A stretch of DNA of 24,000 nt. Origin: Promethearchaeota archaeon. Its GTDB lineage: Archaea; Asgardarchaeota; Lokiarchaeia; Sigyniarchaeales; SOKP01. The stretch's first letter is position 1; each line of letters begins with the position of its first letter. The DNA is taken from NCBI GenBank assembly GCA_004524535.1, contig SDNY01000042.1:4184-28183 (forward strand). Direction: 5' to 3'. The notes under the pieces were generated by a model. That model was not told the origin of the DNA and ran no database searches. It worked only from the letters and a program-made list of their open reading frames with translations. The position numbers were made by a program, and so were the translations under genes. Shown here in pieces: positions 1-19,635 of this stretch.

Positions 1-423
1 TCCAAAATTCAAAGGTTGGGAGCCTTCTTTGCGGAGTCTCTTATTATTTTGTAGAAAATCATGTAAATATTCTTTTTCACGTAAGAATTTAAAGGATTTC
101 AAGAGTGATCCTATTCTGAAACGTAAAAGCGTCCACCAACTAAGTTCCGTCTCAAACACTTTATTGAAAACCCCCCGTTCAATATCAATTGGCATCCCCA
201 TAAAATCCTCAGTCCAATAACCTGCAATCCTATCATCGGGATCTACATAATGAGTCATGTGTTTATATACATTCTTCATTGAAAGTGCAACTCGTATATT
301 CTGAGGGGTTCCATTATTCTCAGTTTCGAACCACTTATCACTATAATATTTTGCTCTTTCAATTGAAATTTTTGGCATTTCAGTCTGGTATCTTTTACGC
401 AATCTTTTAATTCTTTCGCTCAT
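1..423 (-). CDS. Glycyl radical enzyme (PFL2/glycerol-dehydratase-like), N-terminal 141 codons only; gene continues past the left edge
   Basis: Absent from the ORF track because there is no stop in the window. Hand translation of the minus strand from ATG 423..421 reads MSERIKRLRKRYQTEMPKISIERAKYYSDKWFETENNGTPQNIRVALSMKNVYKHMTHYVDPDDRIAGYWTEDFMGMPIDIERGVF... It stays open to position 1. It is colinear with the N-terminal region of the 850-aa GRE at 4030..6582 (LTADHWICLERAKFYTDSYKETEGQHPSIRTAKALKHTFENMTIAIYPEELLVG). It starts 29 nt after the stop of the upstream gene. Confidence 0.7.
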   Translation of the reverse strand, partial: MSERIKRLRKRYQTEMPKISIERAKYYSDKWFETENNGTPQNIRVALSMKNVYKHMTHYVDPDDRIAGYWTEDFMGMPIDIERGVFNKVFETELSWWTLLRFRIGSLLKSFKFLREKEYLHDFLQNNKRLRKEGSQPLNFG

Positions 424-452
424 CTTAATCTTCTAAATTTAAAAACTTATTT

Positions 453-1253
453 TTAATACCAATCCCATTTAATATACGAGTAGGGTAAAAATTCCTCTGG
501 ATCTACTTCAGTCATTATTTCTCCTGGAAACATTTCATTCTCAGATTGTAAATACATCCCCCCTAAAATTTTTACAACTTCTATTTCTCCCCATGGATCG
601 TGGATAGTAGAATTTAAGGTAACTTCAGCTTCTCCCATCTGCATAGATTTTATTTTAGATTTAGTTACCTGCTTTATTAACCAAGGAGTATAATCAAATC
701 CCTCTTTTGTAGGATGGGGAAAATGTTTGAAAAGATAATTTACAGTCCCCTTACCTCTTTTTGGAATCATTTGGATCTCAGATACAATTTTAGGGGTTTC
801 TGCATCATTAAACTTACCGGTAATTTTCAGTTTAGCTTCAAGATTTTTTACCCCATTGCGTTCAGAAAATCCGTAAATTTCGTTTCCATTTTTCTCAAAA
901 TGGACATTTGCAATCTTTTTGGGGAAGCCAAAAATTTCACGACCTGCGAAGGTTGCTCTATCATCTGTCAGAGGCATCGCAAGGAAGTAATTTCCCAATT
1001 CATCCTTATACTTACACCTTAAAATTAATGCTGCTTCTGTGTAAGGCAATCCATATGAATGAGAGGGATAGTTAGCTACAAACGCAAGAGCAATTGGGCG
1101 CTCAAGCGGTTCTAATGGGGGTGGAAGCACACGCTCAACAACTTCCTTCTTGGTCTCCCATAATACCCAAACCATTTCTGCCCCTTCAAACACACTTGTT
1201 ACCATTTCTTCCTTCTTCTTTTTTATTTCATCTAAATCTCTTTTAAAACTCAT
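453..1253 (-). CDS. Acetoacetate decarboxylase (ADC) family protein
   Basis: 266-aa ORF. VLPPPLEPLERPIALAFVANYPSHSYGLPYTEAALILRCKY...GNYFLAMPLTDDRATFAGREIFGFPKK matches the ADC-fold signature remembered as LPxPLEP...Y.EA...GREiwGfPKK. GAGGA Shine-Dalgarno (SD)-like element lies upstream. Start is 18 nt after the Fe-S gene stop. Confidence 0.75.
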   Translation of the reverse strand: MSFKRDLDEIKKKKEEMVTSVFEGAEMVWVLWETKKEVVERVLPPPLEPLERPIALAFVANYPSHSYGLPYTEAALILRCKYKDELGNYFLAMPLTDDRATFAGREIFGFPKKIANVHFEKNGNEIYGFSERNGVKNLEAKLKITGKFNDAETPKIVSEIQMIPKRGKGTVNYLFKHFPHPTKEGFDYTPWLIKQVTKSKIKSMQMGEAEVTLNSTIHDPWGEIEVVKILGGMYLQSENEMFPGEIMTEVDPEEFLPYSYIKWDWY

Positions 1254-1271
1254 TTTATATCCTCTTTTATT

Positions 1272-2480
1272 TTATTCTATAGCTTGATTTAATAATTCTA
1301 ATAGATCTATCATTTTCATATTCGAACCTAAAGCTTTAATCGCATCGCTTAAATTTCTATAGCAGAATGGGCAAATACTCACGAGATTATCCACCCCTGT
1401 TTCTTCGGCTTCTTTTATTCTGCTTTTAGCCATTTCTAATGATAACTCTGGAAATCCCTTTTTTAGACCGCCGCCTGCACCGCAACATTTTGCATGTTGT
1501 TTTATAGTTTTCATCTCCACAATCTCGGCTATTTTACTCAAGAGTTCCCTTGGTTCTTCATATAATCCGGTATGCCGCCCGGTGTGGCAAGGATCATGAT
1601 AGGTAACCTTGAGCCCTAGATCATTTAATTGGATATTGTTTTCAGCTAAATATGTCCTTAAAAATTCAACAGTATGAAGTATTTCGATATCCAAATCCTT
1701 AAATAACTCGGCATAATCCACTTTTAGGGTTCGATAACAGCCAGCGCAGCTAGTGATAATCTTTTTGGCACCGCTCTTTTTAAATAGTTCAAGATTACGT
1801 TCGGCCACAAAATTAAAAGCTTTTCGATCTCCGGTTCGCATGGCGACACTACCGCAGCATACTTCATTTTCTCCGAATATAGAAAAATCTATTCCTAATT
1901 TTTTGAGGACTTTAGCTGTATCTATCGCTACTGCTCGAATATTAGGAGTCAAGGCAGCCGTACATCCTACGAAATAAAGAAGATCTGCCTGCTCTTTACT
2001 TGCATCTTTTATTTTAAAGTCTAATTCTTCTATCCAATTTTCTTTTTCTTTATTATCCTTGTTATAAGGATTTAGTAGTTTGACCATCGCTTTATTCATA
2101 GAATCATGAGATTCCAATCCGCAACCTGCATCTACGAGCTCAGCCCGAAGTGCTTCATAAAGAGCAACATTATTCAAATTATAATTACATGCCTCAGCAC
2201 ATGCATTACATGTGGGACATTGATATATAACTTCAGCCAATCGCTTACTAAGGTTCAAATTTTTTTCCCAAATTGATCGAATGATTTGCATCTTTCCCCG
2301 TCCGAAGAAGGGCTCAAATCCAGTAGAGTGTTCTTTCGCCACGCAGACTCCCACAACTTGAGGATCCGCCGTTATATCTACAGTCTCGCGGCAATCCCCG
2401 CAGCTAATACACGAATTAATTATATCTTTTAATTTTGCTAAATGTTTGTATTTTATATCAGGGTTAATATCAATAGTAAT
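1272..2480 (-). CDS. Fe-S oxidoreductase subunit, GlcF/HdrD/LutA-like, with two CCG cysteine-rich domains and two 4Fe-4S motifs
   Basis: CPTCNACAEAC ferredoxin-type motif plus two CCG motifs (EVCCGSVAMRTG, AKCCGAGGG). The ORF track starts at GTG 2354. The same frame stays open up to TGA 2495..2493 and encodes ...IINSCISCGDCRETVD..., the expected first cluster motif. The 5' end is therefore upstream of 2354 but has no ATG/GTG/TTG. The end coordinate 2480 is the ATT that lies 7 nt after a GGAGG. See findings. Confidence 0.8.
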   Translation of the reverse strand: MTIDINPDIKYKHLAKLKDIINSCISCGDCRETVDITADPQVVGVCVAKEHSTGFEPFFGRGKMQIIRSIWEKNLNLSKRLAEVIYQCPTCNACAEACNYNLNNVALYEALRAELVDAGCGLESHDSMNKAMVKLLNPYNKDNKEKENWIEELDFKIKDASKEQADLLYFVGCTAALTPNIRAVAIDTAKVLKKLGIDFSIFGENEVCCGSVAMRTGDRKAFNFVAERNLELFKKSGAKKIITSCAGCYRTLKVDYAELFKDLDIEILHTVEFLRTYLAENNIQLNDLGLKVTYHDPCHTGRHTGLYEEPRELLSKIAEIVEMKTIKQHAKCCGAGGGLKKGFPELSLEMAKSRIKEAEETGVDNLVSICPFCYRNLSDAIKALGSNMKMIDLLELLNQAIE

Positions 2481-2482
2481 TT

Positions 2483-4015
2483 TTATTCCTCCTCATTTAT
2501 AATATATTTTGAAATATCATCTTCGTAGCTATACATATGGAACTTTTTTGGGCTAAGAATGAAATTAGGATCCACAAGCTTTTTCATATCTTTAAAGAAT
2601 TTCATAAATTCTGTGCTATAAGCTCCTGACTCCACGATAGATTGGGAAATAACCTCACCAAGCCAATAATGTACGCCACCATATTGTGCTTGATGTCGAA
2701 CTCTCTTATGCCACATCTTCATGGCTACTTCTCGTTGATCACTTTTTATGTTATCTGCATTAAAACCTCCAGCAAAAACACAATGACCATTTGATAGAAG
2801 ATGGATGGAAGTGGCAAATAATGAAAAACTCTGATCAGGGAATTCGCTTCTATGAGCGTTATCAAAATCCGTACTAAGTTTCTTTTTTTCGGCCATGGTT
2901 GATATAGGAAGTTTATGACAAGTGGTACAAGAAAGTTTTGGAGGTGCGAGGGACACGAATTTGTTAAAATATGTATAAGAAAATTTTAAATTGAATCTCC
3001 AATCTCTCGCTTCTTCTGCGGTTAAATCAATTTCGGTCCATTCAAAAGGTCTTGCGAAATCTTTCATAATTTTTCCCAGTTTTTCTTCATAAATCTCCAA
3101 AATACGCTCATCAGTAGCTTCTAATATGAACAATATAACAGGTCCCTTTAATTTCGCTCTCTTCGGAGGTCTCTTTTTAGCTTGTGATGCTAAAATCTGC
3201 ACCACCGTACGGGGAGTGACATATAAATCTTGCATACTGTCTCGTAATTCGGTCTGGCATTTATACATTAGTTCAAATAATCTATTATAATCATCATTCA
3301 GGAGCATATAGTTTCTTCGGATCTTATAGGGAGGGTTCGGATATAATTTCAAGGATGCTTTCGTTTTAATTCCCATTGTCCCTACATCCCCCATAAAGAG
3401 CCCTGTAAAGTCTGGAGAGATTCCATATCTACAGAATGGTTTGGCATATTTATTTGCAATTGAACCCGTGCGAATAATAGTCCCGTTTGGGTCTCCTAAT
3501 ACCACCTCAACCCCAAGGCAATTATCTGTAATTAAACCATATTTGGTTGACCCAAACCCTGCGGTGCTATTGGATAATCCCCCGCCGATAGTTGCTGAAA
3601 AACCGCTTCCGGGACCGATAATCCCAATAGATAAATCTTTTTTTAATAATTCTGAATTCAGTTCTCCCCAAGTTATCCCTGTTTCAATAAAACAATAGAA
3701 ATCTTTTTCATTTATTTCTATTATTTTGTTCATCCGGGTTAAGTCCATTAAAATTCCCCCTTGAGTAGCGGACCCTCCTACTAAATCTGCACCGCCACCT
3801 CTGGGAACTATCGATATTTTATATTTATTTGCTATCTTAACTATTTCGGACACTTCTTCGGTACTTTCGGGACGAACTATCATATCTGCCCACCTATCAG
3901 GAAATGCAGGATCTACATTTCGAGAATAAGCAGCTTTCATGAAATCTTCGTCTGTAATATAATCAGAGCCAACTATATCTTCAATGTCTTTATATATATT
4001 ATCAACTTTGGCCAT
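2483..4015 (-). CDS. FAD-binding PCMH-type oxidase/dehydrogenase (GlcD / D-lactate dehydrogenase-like)
   Basis: FAD_binding_4-like N-terminal half: IVRPESTEEVSEIVKIANKYKISIVPRGGGADLVGG...GGILMDLTRMNKIIEI...ETGITWGEL. Preferred start is ATG 4015 (MAKVDNIY), preceded by GAGGT 8 nt upstream. The track's TTG 4039 would overlap the GRE stop. Confidence 0.85.
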   Translation of the reverse strand: MAKVDNIYKDIEDIVGSDYITDEDFMKAAYSRNVDPAFPDRWADMIVRPESTEEVSEIVKIANKYKISIVPRGGGADLVGGSATQGGILMDLTRMNKIIEINEKDFYCFIETGITWGELNSELLKKDLSIGIIGPGSGFSATIGGGLSNSTAGFGSTKYGLITDNCLGVEVVLGDPNGTIIRTGSIANKYAKPFCRYGISPDFTGLFMGDVGTMGIKTKASLKLYPNPPYKIRRNYMLLNDDYNRLFELMYKCQTELRDSMQDLYVTPRTVVQILASQAKKRPPKRAKLKGPVILFILEATDERILEIYEEKLGKIMKDFARPFEWTEIDLTAEEARDWRFNLKFSYTYFNKFVSLAPPKLSCTTCHKLPISTMAEKKKLSTDFDNAHRSEFPDQSFSLFATSIHLLSNGHCVFAGGFNADNIKSDQREVAMKMWHKRVRHQAQYGGVHYWLGEVISQSIVESGAYSTEFMKFFKDMKKLVDPNFILSPKKFHMYSYEDDISKYIINEEE

Positions 4016-4029
4016 TTTTATAAAACCTC

Positions 4030-6582
4030 TTAAAAACAATTACAAAATTCAATTCTATCTATCAAATCATCTTGGATTGACCTGCCAAGCCTTGTAAAAT
4101 AGGCTGAATATCCAGAAACCCGTACAATTAAATCGGGATAATTTTCAGGATGTAGTTGAGCATCCTTTAATGTGTCAGTTCCCATATTATTGACTTGAAG
4201 ATGCATTCCTCCTTTTTCAAAGTAGGTTTCAAGCAAATTCTTAAAGGTTTCGAGGCCCTTATCATTATCTGTTAAGAAGGGTGGGAACCTCATATTCAGA
4301 GAATCACCATATCCTATATCCGTATGGTCAATTTTAGCTACTGAATTTAATGCTGCGGTAGGACCATTCAGTTCAGCACCATTACAAGGAGATATTGCGT
4401 TTGAAAGTGGCTCACCCGCTTTTCTTCCATTCGGAGTTGCGGGTTCTAATGCTCCTTCATACACATTTAGACCATAAGAACTAAAACTTGGTTTGAAAAA
4501 ATCTCCCATTGACAAATTTTTACTCTTTACCATTGCACAAAACTTTTTTACTAATTCAACGGCGATTTTATCTGTGTAATCATCATCATTTCCAAATTTT
4601 GGGCCATTCATTAAGATTTGCCTTAAAGGTTCGTTATCCTTAAAATTGGTTTGTATAGCATGAAGTAAATCGCTCATAGATATTGTTTTTTCTTCATACA
4701 CAAACTTCTTTATAGCCGCTAAAGAATCTACTATCGTTCCTAATCCCCCACCACCAATTGCATGGAACATGAGTTCAGCTCCTCCTTGAGTCATATCCTT
4801 AGCATTTTCAATACACCCATCAATAGTACATGAAATCAATGGATTATGATAATTTTCAGCCCAGACTTGATCTCTCAAATCTCCTGCTTTAGCACATACA
4901 TCAACAATACGTTCTAATTGAGTATAATATGCTTCCATAAACTCGTCAAATGACTTAAACTCTGCGGGATCTCCCGTATCAATATCTTTTTCTCCTCCAA
5001 AAAAGGTTGTAATACCCCGATTAAATGTCAAATCAAGAATAGATGGAAAATATAGTTTAGTACCACCAGTTGCTCCATATGTATCTCCATTACCACTTGG
5101 CTCTACACACCCCACTATACAGTAGTCTCTTGCAGCTTCCAATGAATATCCATCTTTTTCAAGAGCTTTAATAATAACCTCATCATTAAACATAGCTGGT
5201 CCGGCTGTATATTTTTGTAATTCCAAGACCTTTTTTATATATTCTTCAGGACTATTTTTTGAAATTCGGAAAGAGGATTGAGTAGCAAGCTTAGTATTTT
5301 TTATTGCTTCCATAAAGATATAAGTAAGGTCATTGGTCGCATCCTCTCCATTTCGATCTACTCCTCCAAAAGTAATATCTTGAACATCTGAACCTAAATG
5401 GTTAAGGCGAGCACCCAATACATTAGGCCATATCACTACATTATTGTTAATCTTTATGATAACTTCTTCAAGTAACCTTAAAGCATCATCATCCGTAATT
5501 AAATTGGCATTTTTATCTTTCTTATAATATGGATATAGGATTTGATCCAGACGCCCTGGAGTCATACCACCCATCCCATAACTGATTATTACCACATTAT
5601 GAGTAAACCAGAAAGATTGGACTGCTTCATAAAATGTTTCTGGAGGATTCCAAGGTACCTTTTCACAAATTTTTGCAATTTTCAATAATTCCTTTTTTCT
5701 TTCCTCATCAGGTTCAGTACTCGCTATCTCCTTAGCTAATTTTGTGAAGCGAAGACTAAAATCTCTCATTGCTTCACAAGTCATAATAACACCCTCCAGA
5801 AAACCCTTCTCTGAATCATTCTTAGCAGTCTTTAATCTGTTTTCAGCTTGTTCTTTTATACCTTTAAATCCAAATTTCACGACATTCTTATATCCTGGAA
5901 CAATATGACCTTGCATATCAATACATCTTCCCCTTCCTTTCACATTATCAGCAGTGCCTACTTTCATTAGTTTAATCCATTTTGGTAGTTGTAAAAAGAA
6001 TTTAACTTTATCAAAGAAATTAGCATCTGGGTCTGTCACCAGCTTACCTATGTGTTTCAAACCAAACGCATTTCTTAGTCTTTTTAATCCACCATTGCCT
6101 AAAGTAAGTTTGTCCGATAAATTATGTTCCTCAAATAATGGAACCTTCAGAGCTCTCACGGATTTATCTTTCCAGTAAGGTATAATCTCTTTATTAAGCC
6201 ATTTTTTATGCTCTTTCGTGATATGATATCCATATCTTTTCTTAAGAGTTGGTAAAAGATACTTTATTACCATATTCATGTCTCCTCTCTCAGGGGCAAT
6301 AGGGGGTGCAATATATTGGGAGGATCTATTTCCCACCAATAATTCCTCAGGATAAATAGCTATAGTCATATTCTCAAAGGTGTGCTTTAAAGCCTTTGCT
6401 GTACGGATTGAAGGATGTTGCCCTTCTGTTTCTTTATAACTATCCGTATAAAATTTCGCTCGCTCCAAGCAGATCCAATGATCTGCTGTTAATAAGCGAT
6501 CTTTTTGAATTTGATTTTGAGGATGAAGACCCGTTGAATTAAATTCTGGAACTTTTACCTGTTTTTTAATCTCAGCTTGCAT
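4030..6582 (-). CDS. Glycyl radical enzyme, PFL2/glycerol-dehydratase-like (eliminase-type Cys loop)
   Basis: 850 aa. C-terminal glycyl-radical motif LIVRVSGYSAYFTRLGRSIQDDLIDR, with the Gly codon at 4113..4111. Catalytic loop IVGCVEPSG, with the Cys-Val-Glu codons at 5109..5101. GTGAT SD-like element lies 5 nt before the ATG. Confidence 0.9.
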   Translation of the reverse strand: MQAEIKKQVKVPEFNSTGLHPQNQIQKDRLLTADHWICLERAKFYTDSYKETEGQHPSIRTAKALKHTFENMTIAIYPEELLVGNRSSQYIAPPIAPERGDMNMVIKYLLPTLKKRYGYHITKEHKKWLNKEIIPYWKDKSVRALKVPLFEEHNLSDKLTLGNGGLKRLRNAFGLKHIGKLVTDPDANFFDKVKFFLQLPKWIKLMKVGTADNVKGRGRCIDMQGHIVPGYKNVVKFGFKGIKEQAENRLKTAKNDSEKGFLEGVIMTCEAMRDFSLRFTKLAKEIASTEPDEERKKELLKIAKICEKVPWNPPETFYEAVQSFWFTHNVVIISYGMGGMTPGRLDQILYPYYKKDKNANLITDDDALRLLEEVIIKINNNVVIWPNVLGARLNHLGSDVQDITFGGVDRNGEDATNDLTYIFMEAIKNTKLATQSSFRISKNSPEEYIKKVLELQKYTAGPAMFNDEVIIKALEKDGYSLEAARDYCIVGCVEPSGNGDTYGATGGTKLYFPSILDLTFNRGITTFFGGEKDIDTGDPAEFKSFDEFMEAYYTQLERIVDVCAKAGDLRDQVWAENYHNPLISCTIDGCIENAKDMTQGGAELMFHAIGGGGLGTIVDSLAAIKKFVYEEKTISMSDLLHAIQTNFKDNEPLRQILMNGPKFGNDDDYTDKIAVELVKKFCAMVKSKNLSMGDFFKPSFSSYGLNVYEGALEPATPNGRKAGEPLSNAISPCNGAELNGPTAALNSVAKIDHTDIGYGDSLNMRFPPFLTDNDKGLETFKNLLETYFEKGGMHLQVNNMGTDTLKDAQLHPENYPDLIVRVSGYSAYFTRLGRSIQDDLIDRIEFCNCF

Positions 6583-6624
6583 TTTTTATCACTTTTAGAA
6601 TTAGAATCTGTTAAAAAATTAAAC

Positions 6625-6690
6625 ATTTCTAGAAATATCTGTAATATTCTTCAAGTTACACTAGTAGAAATAGGTATTTATAGTTTCTAC
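6625..6690. promoter_or_regulatory. Candidate operator/promoter of the GRE operon: 12-bp palindrome ATTTCTAGAAAT plus inverted repeat GTAGAAA-N13-TTTCTAC bracketing a TATA-like element
   Basis: Palindrome at 6625..6636. Inverted repeat at 6664..6670 and 6684..6690; on the coding (minus) strand its spacer reads CTATAAATACCTA. All elements share the half-site TTTCTA/TAGAAA. They lie 43-108 nt upstream of the GRE ATG (6582). Confidence 0.35.
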
Positions 6691-6813
6691 CTATTTAAGA
6701 GCATTTCTTTAAATATAAATTGAGTTTTTAAGGCTTTCAAGGTTCAGAAATTAAATTAAACTGTTATGAGAATTAAATTCTTTTTTTATAAATTACATCT
6801 CTCACTATAGCTC

Positions 6814-7686
6814 TTATCCTTTAAATCCTGCAGCAAGTTGTGCATCTGCAGTCGGCCTTAAAAGAATATAAGTACGACGTGTATATTCAATAAGTTCTTC
6901 ATGGTCTGAATAAAGTGCTGAAGCTTCTTTAATGTTTATTCTATTATTTTTTACATCACTTTTAATTAACGTCATAATTAATTCCCGATTATCGACCATT
7001 GTCATTCTTATGGGAGGGGCAAAATTAATTGCTTTAACATCAATATCAGTGGTTGTCTGACCATCGATCAAACCAATCGGTTCAAGTATTTCCTTTCTAA
7101 AGTGGATCCTAAATTTGGGTGGCCCTCCATAAAGAATCTTTATTTTTATACCCTTTTTTATTGCTTTTTGTATATAATCTCGCAAAAGATCCTCTTCATA
7201 TTTTAATAAATAAGCCATAATTAGGATAATTTCATCTTTTGCGCCCTCTAGAATATTTCTCATAAGTTTATGATACTCTTCTAAACCAGTCACGAAATTA
7301 AGGGGAGGCACTTCACTAAATGGGTAATTTATACCGAGTTTGGGTAATAATTTAATTTCATTGAATATGGATTCAGAAGCTTTTTCTAATTCATTTTTAC
7401 GCGACTTTAATAAATTCTCAATGGCAATTGCAGGTTCTATAGGTCTTATAAACATAGGGCGAGTATTATCAATCTGAATCAATTTTCTTTCTTCTAATCT
7501 TTTAATAATATTATATACTTTTGGTTTTGAATATTTTGAAAGCTCTATTAAGTCAGTCGCCTTTATTTTATTATAAATACTTTTTGAATCTTTTCTTGGA
7601 ATCAAAGATAACTGAATTAATAATTTGTAAATATTTTCTTCAGCATCATTAAAATTAAATTCTGAAAAGGGATTATAGATTGACAT
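6814..7686 (-). CDS. TrmB-family transcriptional regulator (N-terminal wHTH plus TrmB-type C-terminal domain)
   Basis: 290 aa. wHTH segment ATDLIELSKYSKPKVYNIIKRLEERKLIQI. Then a coiled-coil linker (LLKSRKNELEKASESIFNEI) and a C-terminal domain (EIILIMAYLLKYEE...IKIKILYG) arranged as in TrmB-like regulators. Sits directly upstream of, and co-oriented with, the GRE operon. Confidence 0.7.
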   Translation of the reverse strand: MSIYNPFSEFNFNDAEENIYKLLIQLSLIPRKDSKSIYNKIKATDLIELSKYSKPKVYNIIKRLEERKLIQIDNTRPMFIRPIEPAIAIENLLKSRKNELEKASESIFNEIKLLPKLGINYPFSEVPPLNFVTGLEEYHKLMRNILEGAKDEIILIMAYLLKYEEDLLRDYIQKAIKKGIKIKILYGGPPKFRIHFRKEILEPIGLIDGQTTTDIDVKAINFAPPIRMTMVDNRELIMTLIKSDVKNNRINIKEASALYSDHEELIEYTRRTYILLRPTADAQLAAGFKG

Positions 7687-7996: not shown

Positions 7997-8800
7997 ATGA
8001 TAGAGGAGAAAAGTAAGACTAAACCTTTCTTATTCACTCAAAAGGATGCAGTAGCAATAATATCAATAAATAAACCCCCAATGAACACCATGAGTTTGGA
8101 GTTCTTCGATAAGTTGGAAAAACTTGTCCCGAAGCTCTCCGAAGACCGAAATGTTCGCGCCATCGTTATTACGGCAGAAGGGGAGGATAATTTCTCTGTG
8201 GGTATGGATCTTAAACAGATTGCAGGGGTAGGGCGCAACAAAAAGCGTATACAAGACATCTTAGACCAACGCTTACGAGTCCTCAATGCGATTGAGAAAA
8301 TGAGAAAGCCCGTAGTGGCCACACTTTTTGGATATTGCCTTGGAGGGGGATTAGAACTACCTCTATCATGCCATTTTCGACTAGCTGCTGAAAAAGGTGC
8401 AAAGATCGGTCTACCTGAGCTGGATCTAGGCACGGTCCCAGCATGGGGAGGAAGCGCACGCTTAACCCGATGTGTGGGGCGATTATACGCACTTGATATG
8501 ATACTCCGAGCTAAAAAGATTTCTGGTCCGGAAGCATATCGGATTGGCTTAGTAAACGAAGTTGTCCCAAACGCAGAGCTTAAAGATCGTGCTTTTGAGT
8601 TAGCTAAAGAACTTTCTGATATGCCAATGATGGCCGTTTCTGAAATGCTAAGTTGTATAGTTGAATACGGAGATCAACCATTACAGCAAGGATTATATCA
8701 GGAACGCCAAGCAGTACTTAAAACTATGGGTACAAAGGACAACATGGAAGGAATGATGGCTTTCCTCCAAAAACGCAAACCAAAATTCAACCAATTCTGA
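7997..8800 (+). CDS. Enoyl-CoA hydratase/isomerase (crotonase superfamily)
   Basis: 267 aa. AIVITAEGEDNFSVGMDLK, GYCLGGGLELPLSCHFRLAAEKGAKIGLPELDLGTVPAWGGSARLTRCVG and a C-terminal EGMMAFLQKRKPKF are classic crotonase-fold motifs. AGGAG SD lies 6 nt before the ATG. Confidence 0.9.
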   Translation: MIEEKSKTKPFLFTQKDAVAIISINKPPMNTMSLEFFDKLEKLVPKLSEDRNVRAIVITAEGEDNFSVGMDLKQIAGVGRNKKRIQDILDQRLRVLNAIEKMRKPVVATLFGYCLGGGLELPLSCHFRLAAEKGAKIGLPELDLGTVPAWGGSARLTRCVGRLYALDMILRAKKISGPEAYRIGLVNEVVPNAELKDRAFELAKELSDMPMMAVSEMLSCIVEYGDQPLQQGLYQERQAVLKTMGTKDNMEGMMAFLQKRKPKFNQF

Positions 8801-16820: not shown

Positions 16821-17910
16821 ATGAAATGGTCGATTAAAAATAACTCAAGCATCTAAAGAAGATAATGTTCAAGATGAAACAGAAGAGAAAATTGAAAAAG
16901 GGTTAGAAATTGGGCCAGATCAATTCGTTCTCAACTGGAAATATAAGGATATTAGTAAAGAACTTACGTACGACATTAAAAAATGTATAGGTTGTAGTTT
17001 ATGTAAACTTGTATGTCCCGTTGACGCCATTGAGCTTGGACCAATTCCAGAAATAGCTCAAAACATTTTAGACGAATCTAATCCAAAACTTTTAATTGAC
17101 CATGAAAAATGCTGCTACTGCATGTTGTGCGCCATAGTTTGCCCAACCGACGCATTTCACGAAAATTTTGAACCTGAAGGGCAAATTGACCTTGAAGAAT
17201 TTCCTACAATAGGTAAATTTTACAAAATCGATGAGGATAAATGTGTTGAAGATCTTAATAACGAGATTTGTCAATTATGTTTAAAGGTGCGAGATAGAAA
17301 CAGCGTAAAAGTTTATTTCAGAATTGAAAAAGAGTGTCCCACTCAATGTTTTCATATCGATTCTCCTATAGAGGGAGAAGTAATTATCAAAAAAAATATG
17401 TTGTGGAAGTGTGACCCCCAAGGTTGTAAAGCTTGTGTTAATATATGCCCCACAGAATCTTTTTTTATTCCAGAAAGCGCCGAAGATGTCATAAAATATG
17501 GAAAAATTGCATGTAATGAAGATGCATGTTTTTACTGCGGTGCTTGCGAGAATTCATGCCCTGATGATTTAATCGTGGTCGAAAGAAAAAATATCGTTAT
17601 AGAGGACCCAAAAAAGCAAGGAAATTATCCCTGGATTAAAGGATGGGTTAAAAACATTAAAGAAATCTTGAGAAAGAGACTTATTGAAGGAAAAGAACAG
17701 TTTAGTATTCCAATTATCGAAAAAGAAATTGAAAAAGTAAAAGAAAAAATAATAGAGGCAATACCTCAATTATCGGAAGAAGACCGTCAAAAATTAAATG
17801 AATTAAACGAAAAAATTCAAACCTTACTGAAATCTAAAAAAATTCGATATTGGATAAAAGATAAAAAAGTTGATAAAATCTTAAAAGAATTAAGAAAGCA
17901 ACTACAGTAA
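16821..17910 (+). CDS. Polyferredoxin-like protein (4-5 Cys-cluster motifs) with a K/E-rich helical C-terminal tail; 5' end anomalous (frame change or non-canonical start)
   Basis: Motifs CIGCSLCKLVCP (16984..17019), CCYCMLCAIVCP, CKACVNICP, CFYCGACENSCP, plus a degenerate C-x-x-C...CP. The track starts at ATG 17122, inside the second motif. The frame is open back to TGA 16822..16824 with no ATG/GTG/TTG. ATG 16821 is in the preceding frame. Confidence 0.75.
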
Positions 17911-17922
17911 AAAGAAAATAAT

Positions 17923-18456
17923 TTATTTATTCTCTTCATATAATGATGGTAAAAAATTTGTAAATTCACTTATCTCTTCTATATTATGTTTACGCAGAGC
18001 TTTTAAAAACCATCGAGGAGTCTTTGCCGGTAACCGAAATGTTGTACGTAATCGCGTCCCATCATCAATAGACTCATATTCATGTAATATCCAACTGAGA
18101 GGTTTATCGTTGCTATCAAGGATACTCCCTGCCAATAGATGGCTGTAGGTTGCTTTTATGGGTATTGAACTTGGGTCTTCCCAACGAATCCGTAACATGG
18201 TGGGAACTTTTACAGTTTCTATGACATGTTGGATTGCACCAACATGCCCGTTTTCGGGAGATTTTTCCCATTTAAATGAAATATGATCTTTAGGATGCCA
18301 TAATTTATAGCGCTCTGTAGTATTAATGTGATCCCACCACCAATCAATCATTTCTGCAGTAACCCGTTGTAATTTATGATCAACAATCAAATCAACTGTT
18401 TCAGAGTTTGATGCACTAGCGATCTCTTCCATTACTCGAAATGACTCTCTACTCAT
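17923..18456 (-). CDS. Hypothetical protein, Bet v1/SRPBCC-like by eye (possibly DAPG/phloretin-hydrolase-domain-like)
   Basis: 177-aa ORF. MIDWWWDHINTTERYKLWHPKDHISFKWE...LRIRWED...LRTTFRLP shows the beta-rich pattern with a terminal helix seen in Bet v1-fold proteins. The family assignment is a recollection, not a search result. Confidence 0.4.
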   Translation of the reverse strand: MSRESFRVMEEIASASNSETVDLIVDHKLQRVTAEMIDWWWDHINTTERYKLWHPKDHISFKWEKSPENGHVGAIQHVIETVKVPTMLRIRWEDPSSIPIKATYSHLLAGSILDSNDKPLSWILHEYESIDDGTRLRTTFRLPAKTPRWFLKALRKHNIEEISEFTNFLPSLYEENK

Positions 18457-19533: not shown

Positions 19534-19635
19534 TGGGAGGAGGGGGATTCGAACCCCCGGCCTCCTGGTGTTTTGCTCCAACCTTTCTGTTTGAAGTCCC
19601 AAACCAGGAATCATACCAAGCTAGACCACCCTCCC
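19534..19635 (-). tRNA. tRNA-Pro (anticodon UGG) with a 28-nt intron at the canonical 37/38 position
   Basis: Reverse complement folds by hand as follows. Acceptor GGGAGGG/UCCUCCC. D arm with GG. Anticodon stem CCUGG/CCAGG. Loop UU-UGG-G(A). T arm GGGGG-UUCGAAU-CCCCC. Discriminator A, with no encoded CCA. Intron 19597..19570 is bounded by a bulge-helix-bulge: 4-bp helix UUUG/CAAA flanked by 3-nt bulges GGA and ACA, with outer helix CUUC/GGAG. Confidence 0.9.

Follow-up and report, generated by a model that had tools for sequence, protein, structure and literature searches.

What would bring two glycyl radical enzymes (GREs), a protein with the fold of acetoacetate decarboxylase (ADC), and a flavoprotein with an iron-sulfur partner together in one archaeal operon, and how would the GREs be activated there? 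The question is raised by a 24,000-nt stretch of contig SDNY01000042.1 (positions 4,184 to 28,183, forward strand) from a Promethearchaeota archaeon (assembly GCA_004524535.1), hereafter referred to as the window. According to a 2026 review, functions have been established for PFL-like GREs of bacteria only, and the archaeal GREs represent the clearest gap (PMC13450708). Based on the analyses described below, we propose with moderate confidence that the locus is a catabolic operon of Lokiarchaeon-type Asgard archaea, in which two radical eliminases activated in trans act together with an ADC-fold enzyme and a flavoprotein. Most likely, the locus serves the anaerobic degradation of a hydroxylated compound that probably derives from sugars.

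Organization and conservation of the operon

The five genes of the proposed operon are all encoded on the minus strand, with gaps of 14, 2, 18, and 29 nt counted from GRE-1 to GRE-2. GRE-1 (4030..6582, 850 aa), a putative eliminase-type GRE, comprises a PFL-like domain (PF02901, 8e-171) and a Gly_radical domain (PF01228, 2e-29). It is followed by a flavoprotein of the VAO/PCMH superfamily (2483..4015, 510 aa) with an FAD_binding_4 domain (3e-38) and a divergent cap domain, an Fe-S subunit (about 1272..2480, ~402 aa) with two CCG domains (5e-38), a putative Schiff-base enzyme of the ADC fold (453..1253, 266 aa; PF06314, 1e-49), and the N-terminus of GRE-2 (1..423, 141 codons; PFL-like, 2.7e-10). 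Together with a regulator and a crotonase gene described further below, these are the seven genes named in a preliminary description of the window, and all of them lie where it had placed them.

Species-representative genomes were scanned with the ADC protein as anchor and metagenomes with the GREs as anchors, and the loci obtained (cited as L with a number) were then searched by tblastn with all window proteins. Conservation of the gene order had been suggested as a test of the operon, and the window order, identical or permuted, was found in no fewer than 10 related contigs. Among public sequences, the nearest relative is the metagenome-assembled genome (MAG) LW60_4 (JAHPZI010000002.1, L006), with 88–91% nucleotide identity. 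Denoting the flavoprotein and Fe-S genes as FAD and CCG, L088 has the order GRE1-FAD-CCG-ADC-GRE2, and L095 has TrmB-GRE1-FAD-CCG-ADC-GRE2 followed by URO-D and corrinoid-protein genes. The order of L095 minus CCG is found in L005 and L006, whereas L021 has TrmB-GRE1-FAD-CCG-ADC, L093 has TrmB-GRE1-GRE2-FAD-ADC, and L001 has TrmB-GRE1-GRE1'-FAD-CCG-ADC, three unknown genes, and then GRE2. Partial versions occur in L124, L147, L161, and L164. The most widely kept unit is flavoprotein-(CCG)-ADC, with the flavoprotein directly before ADC in 21 of the 31 Asgard ADC-anchored loci, and this unit is often doubled (FAD-ADC-FAD-CCG-ADC). GRE-1 of the window is 97% identical to that of L006 and the flavoprotein 79%, whereas the corresponding values for L088 are 79% and 85%, and the CCG gene is common to the window and L088. 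This mismatch suggests that the segment encoding the flavoprotein, with or without CCG (1272–4015), was replaced by recombination.

Catalytic features of GRE-1 and GRE-2

Full-length GRE-2 was found in L006 (L006:10831-13383; 851 aa with PFL-like and Gly_radical domains), and the window fragment is 96% identical to its start over 141 residues; the GRE-2 motifs given here are those of L006. With an identity of 32–34% to each other, GRE-1 and GRE-2 are, as judged from their sequences, separate families and not close paralogs. The earlier view of two paralogous GREs is thus correct as to their number and overstated as to their kinship. GREs had also been described as uncommon in archaea; they are common in Asgard archaea, where dozens of clusters match at 60–97% identity.

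In support of the eliminase role that the preliminary description had considered for one GRE, both enzymes carry the catalytic set of eliminases and dehydratases. His226, Cys492, Glu494, and the RVSGY segment of GRE-1 align to His164, Cys433, Glu435, and the radical Gly of glycerol dehydratase (GD), where the roles of Gly, Cys-x-Glu, and His164 have been summarized (PMC13450708). The Cys-x-Glu loop reads GCVEP in GRE-1 and MGCVEM in GRE-2, in which the His164 equivalent is located within QGHV, and both the loop and the His are invariant inside the two families. The glycyl fingerprints contain RVSGYSAYF in GRE-1 and KVGGYSAYF in GRE-2. Compared to the GRE fingerprint RVxG[FWY]x6-8[FL]x4Qx2[IV]x2R (PMC13450708), GRE-1 (RVSGYSAYFTRLGRSIQDDLIDR) has Leu at the [IV] position and in GRE-2 (KVGGYSAYFCELGIEIQNEIIAR) Lys replaces Arg.

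The best solved-structure match of GRE-1 is glycerol dehydratase 1r8w (1.9e-145, 490 bits). Family membership was judged by NCBIfam equivalog models with their cutoffs, against which GRE-1 scored 565 bits for PFL2-3 (cutoff 678), 550 for HypD (1100), 527 for HpsG (1000), 492 for CutC (1050), and 423 for PflD (1109); the GRE-2 scores were below those of GRE-1. No equivalog cutoff was reached by either GRE, including those of GD/propanediol dehydratase (PD), HypD, HpfG, HpsG, CutC, and PflD, which supports the earlier remark that this gene combination is not recognizable among the characterized GRE loci. The pocket motifs of GRE-1 are kept across 45 homologs from Asgard archaea and bacteria.

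Bacterial counterparts

GRE-1 homologs with 53–61% identity are located on high-GC bacterial contigs. Their pocket motifs Q[AG]HI, G[AMS]GG[IM]T, VGCVEP, GATGG[ST], and SYGLN are identical to those of Asgard GRE-1, which argues for one shared GRE-1 substrate. A PflA-type activase (TIGR02494, 240 bits) lies directly downstream in 29 of the 31 bacterial GRE-1 loci, and a TetR gene is usually found 5' of GRE-1. Beside bacterial GRE-1, an ADC-like gene and an acyl-CoA dehydrogenase were identified in L097, L104, L110, and L122, with family III CoA-transferases and enoyl-CoA hydratases in addition in L104. An ADC-like gene is also found near GRE-1 in L109 and L125, after which the contigs end. The grouping of GRE-1 with an ADC-like enzyme and a flavin dehydrogenase is thus found in Asgard archaea as well as in bacteria. 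In bacterial ADC-anchored loci (mostly Desulfobacterota; L035-L085), acyl-CoA dehydrogenase adjoins ADC in 32 of 49 cases, mostly directly downstream. Cluster look-ups for the bacterial GRE-1 clade returned no names. The bacterial units of ADC and acyl-CoA dehydrogenase have an AraC/GyrI-type regulator upstream in nine loci and an SDR after them in up to 14.

The ADC-like protein, the flavoprotein, and the Fe-S protein

The ADC-like protein contains an invariant GREIFGFPKK motif and an invariant Glu73, the counterparts of K115, K116, and E76 of ADC. Its AlphaFold model (pLDDT 89) matches the fold of true ADCs with TM scores of 0.74–0.82 at ~20% identity, and that of MppR/Sbi00515 with 0.65–0.72. 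Based on sequence and model, the protein is probably a Schiff-base enzyme; its identity as an acetoacetate decarboxylase is not demonstrable.

The PDB matches of the flavoprotein are limited to residues about 6–257, that is, the FAD domain, with p-cresol methylhydroxylase 9h40 as the best match (4e-30), followed by D-lactate dehydrogenase (4e-27). Since only the FAD domain aligns, the subfamily is unassignable by single-sequence and profile PDB searches. The cap domain matches no solved family, and it contains an invariant CxxCH-like SCTTCHK motif as well as invariant C166, C195, and C412, which may form a metal or cluster site. The flavoprotein and the Fe-S protein had previously been described as a GlcD/GlcF-type pair. 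This is correct at the domain level and does not extend to the families, as the flavoprotein scored 124 against GlcD TIGR00387 (cutoff 568), the Fe-S protein 59 against GlcF NF008434 (cutoff 333), and no FAD-oxidase_C domain was detected in the flavoprotein by domain search. The Fe-S protein has two ferredoxin-type Cys motifs in addition to its CCG domains, and among the NCBIfam models it scores highest with TfrB (236 bits, cutoff 385), making it TfrB/HdrD-like rather than GlcF-like.

No ATG, GTG, or TTG codon is present 5' of the first Cys motif of the Fe-S gene. Its start, within 2478-2495, is probably ATT, a codon that reads ATG in 9 of 11 homologs compared, and a GGAGG sequence lies 8 nt upstream; the ATT would be either a rare non-canonical start or a sign of early gene decay. 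The closest relatives, L005 and L006, have no copy of the gene, nor do L093 and L124, and in L001 (L001:15157-17880; a JGI contig) both the flavoprotein and the CCG genes look frameshifted, through either gene decay or assembly error.

Activation of the GREs

In the 24-kb window, no activase was found by tblastn with E. coli PflA and a bacterial GRE activase (best E = 0.75), and the CxxxCxxC motif occurs in no window open frame of at least 80 codons. The reported absence of a radical-SAM activase from the 24 kb thus holds by both searches, and what needs revision is its apparent oddity. Among GRE-1 loci with a GC content of ≤0.52, an activase was present in 0 of 27, as compared to 29 of 31 in the high-GC bacterial loci. 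In the low-GC locus L166, which has a GRE-2-like gene (54% identical), we identified an activase of 302 aa with a ferredoxin insert and a radical-SAM domain, the nearest homologs of which are annotated as Lokiarchaeota, Promethearchaeota, Hermodarchaeota, and Helarchaeota. This Asgard activase adjoins a third family, GRE-3, in six of six contexts (L165, L166, L168, L170, L172, and L174). GRE-3 proteins are 806–865 aa long and have the Cys loop TGCVDM or TGCVDL, with Asp for Glu (aligned: L165-L168, L170). The GRE-3 operon of L166 also encodes a D-2-hydroxyacid dehydrogenase, a metallo-beta-lactamase-fold protein, a KDPG aldolase, and an FGGY kinase. On contig JAHLWS010000079.1, the activase and GRE-3 are located near 22–26 kb and a FAD-ADC-FAD-CCG-ADC array near 89–95 kb. 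The lack of activases at the 27 low-GC loci, taken together with the GRE-3-linked activases, indicates that absence from the window is the normal state and the rule for Asgard GRE-1/GRE-2 loci. The simplest reading, although unproven, is that the GRE-3-linked activase works in trans on GRE-1 and GRE-2.

Other candidates were rejected. The radical-SAM genes in L001/L095 (437 aa), L003 (312 aa), and L087 (B12-rSAM) match NirJ/SPASM/PTO1314-type models, and the polyferredoxin-like ORFs (window 17122-17910, and the gene 5' of GRE-1 in L003/L004) contain Fer4 domains only.

Regulator, upstream region, and neighboring genes

A gene for a TrmB-family helix-turn-helix (HTH) regulator (6814..7686, minus strand, 290 aa; PF01978, 3.5e-7, 30.4 bits, cutoff 25.6) is located 231 nt upstream of GRE-1 on the same strand. 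It is found 5' of GRE-1 in L001, L006, L021, L092, L093, and L095 and is absent from FAD-ADC loci without GRE, and thus goes with GRE-1. The TrmB, TrmBL1, and TrmBL2 models gave 21–23 bits (cutoffs 500–650), and no match to a C-terminal sugar-binding domain was found. With only the HTH domain detected, sugar sensing, from which the earlier argument had started, is not inferable from this protein. Between the two genes lies a putative promoter/operator region (6583..6813, minus strand) with conserved blocks in six TrmB-GRE-1 loci, where the AT-rich blocks TTTATATTTAAAG, AAATAGGTnGAAACTATAAATA, and TTCTnCTAGTGTAAC 5' of GRE-1 are largely kept. The region also contains a palindrome, GTAGAAA-N13-TTTCTAC (6664–6690), with perfect 7-bp arms around a TATA-like box and as a single copy in the window (chance expectation 0.01). 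An operator role is not supported, as the palindrome was found in no relative.

Beyond the regulator, a crotonase/enoyl-CoA hydratase is encoded divergently (7997..8800, plus strand; ECH_1, 1.7e-52). The preliminary description was right about the divergent gene, which is, however, no conserved neighbor, since it occurs in no other GRE-1 locus examined, and it is probably not part of the operon unit. At its position, L006 has ABC-transporter genes, and L001 and L095 have an SGSH-like sulfatase together with a 437-aa radical-SAM/SPASM-like gene, encoded divergently 5' of TrmB-GRE-1 (L001:5818-8693, L095:5826-8693); the latter gene is probably a sulfatase maturase. On the other side, 3' of GRE-2, URO-D-family methyltransferase and corrinoid-protein genes form two pairs in L006 (L006:13402-17414) and at least one in L095 (L095:18769-20910), and one of the methyltransferases has an N-terminal HMG-CoA_red_N-like domain. 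These genes could constitute a methyl-ether or methylamine demethylase system.

In its remaining part, the window encodes CDC48, an archaemetzincin, an MIT-domain protein, and a tRNA that probably contains an intron; along with the names of the homologs, this content assigns the window to Asgard archaea (Promethearchaeota/Lokiarchaeia). The tRNA (19534-19635, minus strand; Rfam, 49 bits) spans 102 nt against a model of 71 positions, an excess that points to an archaeal tRNA with an intron; no tRNA was predicted in the window by ARAGORN in its bacterial mode. A truncated DAPG-hydrolase-like ORF of 177 aa (17926-18456, minus strand) adjoins the polyferredoxin-like ORF (17122-17910, plus strand).

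Proposed pathway

From the gene content, the conserved order, the catalytic motifs, the linkage of GRE-1, ADC, and flavoprotein across domains, and the placement of the activases, we infer the following reaction types and order of steps. The operon would have a promoter of its own and lie downstream of the gene for a dedicated TrmB-like regulator, which would control it. GRE-1 and/or GRE-2 would function as radical 1,2-eliminases, of the dehydratase type or of the related ring-opening isomerase type, converting a hydroxylated, probably sugar-derived substrate to a carbonyl compound. The ADC-fold enzyme would then form a lysine Schiff base with this carbonyl compound or keto acid, followed by decarboxylation or aldol-type cleavage, and radical dehydration of a vicinal-diol acid to a beta-keto acid would provide the chemical link between the GRE and ADC steps. 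An accompanying hydroxy/keto oxidation may be carried out by the VAO-superfamily flavoprotein, with the HdrD/TfrB-like Fe-S subunit, where present, as the presumed electron acceptor. The glycyl radicals would be installed in trans by the single canonical activase of the genome, encoded beside GRE-3.

A sugar origin of the substrate, formerly based on the TrmB family, is instead suggested by the gene context. This includes the sulfatase 5' of TrmB-GRE-1 in L001/L095, the MFS_2 and Sugar_tr transporters and an aldehyde:ferredoxin oxidoreductase (AOR) near FAD-ADC modules, a glycosidase-like gene beside the bacterial GRE-1 of L097 with PTS genes on the same contig, and the FGGY kinase and KDPG aldolase around GRE-3.

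Several observations weigh against this pathway. GREs are present at only 6 of the 31 Asgard ADC-anchored loci and FAD-ADC is missing from about half of the Asgard GRE-1 loci, so that the coupling of the two is facultative. The flavoprotein partners in the two domains are non-homologous, the bacterial one being an acyl-CoA dehydrogenase and the Asgard one VAO-type. Decay of the Fe-S gene is possible, considering its ATT start, the apparent frameshifts in L001, and its absence from L005/L006. Arg29 and Glu61 of ADC are replaced by Ala25 and Ala57 in the window ADC-like protein, which scored 64.9 bits against NF002614 (cutoff 150). The pocket of GRE-1 is unlike that of every characterized GRE: H281, S282, Y339, and D447 of GD correspond to G338, G339, V400, and G506, so that the substrate-contact residues are replaced by Gly or Val and the pocket loops are Gly-rich, and the analysis assigned no substrate to either GRE. 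The bacterial GRE-1 activase is of a short PflA type, whereas the sole Asgard activase type found has a ferredoxin insert and is linked to GRE-3, and the shorter bacterial type was not found in the Asgard loci; because the types differ, cross-activation is an assumption. The presence of an activase in the window's own genome is likewise assumed. None was located in the closest relative MAG LW60_4, and the four contig-traced Asgard activases belong to other MAGs. More tentatively than the pathway itself, we suggest that GRE-1, along with its bacterial homologs, and GRE-2 may act on substrates new to the superfamily, feeding a Schiff-base decarboxylase and a flavoprotein, and that three GRE families would depend on one trans-acting activase or, alternatively, that GRE-1 and GRE-2 would be activated in a non-canonical manner.

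Alternative explanations

The published interpretation of such enzymes is a different one. Zhang et al. (2021) named Asgard GREs Ass/Bss based on 29–33% identity to AssA/BssA and a single Cys (PMC8163825), and the homologs in Hermodarchaeota and Thorarchaeota were proposed to be alkyl- or benzylsuccinate synthases activating hydrocarbons by fumarate addition. A Hermodarchaeota GRE (P0016) is 69% identical to GRE-1, and the surroundings of the L104 GRE, with family III CoA-transferases, an acyl-CoA dehydrogenase, and enoyl-CoA hydratases, would also be consistent with this function. However, nearly all non-PFL GREs have a single Cys (PMC13450708), GRE-1 gave only 258 and 242 bits with solved MasD and BSS-alpha as compared to 490 for glycerol dehydratase, and the CXE motif together with the counterpart of His164 is a feature of eliminases and isomerases. 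In addition, the gaps of 2–29 nt leave no room in the operon for the genes of small beta and gamma subunits. Judged by these sequence features, the Ass/Bss interpretation does not fit the GREs examined, and we regard it as very improbable for this locus. Less remote, although still unlikely, is a pathway that degrades methoxylated or phenolic aromatics derived from lignin. Here, aryl side chains would be the target of the GREs (e.g., by arylacetate decarboxylation), the flavoprotein would oxidize the 4-alkylphenol formed, and the ADC-like protein would serve as a decarboxylase or aldolase downstream. The nearest solved relative of the flavoprotein is 9h40, with eugenol and vanillyl-alcohol oxidases also ranking high, but this homology is confined to the FAD domain, where D-lactate dehydrogenases score nearly as well, and the Tyr-Arg phenolate pair of PCMH aligns to Tyr-Trp. 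The URO-D-type methyltransferase and corrinoid genes directly after GRE-2 in L006 and L095 resemble O-demethylase systems; they lie beyond the window and in two relatives only. A DAPG-hydrolase-like ORF is present inside the window, its relation to the operon not being established, and phenol induces ADC-superfamily genes in Saccharolobus (PMC7820114), which we have counted in favor of aromatics. The GREs themselves point elsewhere: both score far better on dehydratase/lyase models (565, 550, and 527 bits for GRE-1) than on arylacetate decarboxylases (362 and 300 bits), and the His protonating the leaving hydroxyl is retained in both.

It may also be asked whether a single pathway exists at all, or whether the flavoprotein-ADC module and the GREs are independent catabolic units that are neighbors in some genomes. 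The facultative coupling described above, the mosaic cassette with its discordant identities to L006 (GRE-1 97%/flavoprotein 79%) and L088 (79%/85%), and the variable presence of the Fe-S gene are all in line with independence. Against it, the adjacency of GRE and FAD-ADC recurs in different Asgard permutations and, independently, in bacteria, with another flavoprotein and an adjacent activase, and the gaps of 2–29 nt on a single strand indicate co-transcription. On balance, we consider independent units improbable and prefer the joint pathway of radical elimination followed by Schiff-base chemistry.

Implications and comparison with known systems

The literature searches returned no paper on a cluster of GRE, ADC, and flavoprotein, and the novelty lies in the GRE subfamilies themselves, in the proteins that accompany them, and in the unusual placement of the activase. 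The locus defines two archaeal GRE families that are conserved and whose partners can be named, and in the Asgard genomes a single activase gene is found beside one GRE family, the other GRE families having no adjacent activase. If correct, the proposal would represent the first defined archaeal GRE pathway, in which GREs feed a Schiff-base decarboxylase and a flavoprotein. It challenges the Ass/Bss hydrocarbon interpretation of Asgard GREs and therefore bears on carbon-metabolism models of the closest archaeal relatives of eukaryotes. The bacterial sister clade, which has its own activase, offers a tractable route to biochemistry.

Among characterized systems, GRE-1 resembles the C-O-cleaving GRE 1,2-eliminases (GD, PD, HypD, and HpfG) in fold, domains, and catalytic residues. 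It differs from GD-type eliminases in having Gly/Val at the contact positions and an insertion of ~50 residues before the barrel, in its archaeal host, and in that neither activase nor microcompartment genes adjoin it at the Asgard locus. PflD/YbiW, which open the ring of anhydrohexitol-6-phosphate, share the CXE motif with GRE-1 and have sugar-derived substrates, but are farther from it (1e-99 to 1e-105 with the solved structures) than the dehydratases, and their neighboring genes differ. Compared to the Asgard operon, the bacterial TetR-GRE-activase loci have an adjacent activase, TetR in place of the TrmB-like regulator, acyl-CoA dehydrogenase in place of the VAO-type flavoprotein, a high GC content, and no GRE-2.

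The flavoprotein and Fe-S genes are arranged as in GlcDF glycolate oxidase, where a protein with an FAD_binding_4 domain precedes one that has two CCG domains and two ferredoxin-type motifs. The lactate-utilization pairs of sulfate reducers likewise consist of a D-lactate dehydrogenase/GlcD-type flavoprotein and an HdrD/GlcF-like CCG Fe-S protein. The window pair differs from both in that its cap domain is unrelated to FAD-oxidase_C and its Fe-S partner is dispensable in close relatives. The ADC-like protein shares the Schiff-base Lys, the neighboring Lys, and Glu76 with the ADCs of Clostridium and Chromobacterium, and its fold with the ADC-superfamily aldolase-dehydratases MppR and Sbi00515, which rank below the ADCs in TM score. 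Known ADCs are found in the context of CoA-transferases and solventogenesis, whereas the ADC-like protein of the window is encoded together with a flavoprotein and two GREs.

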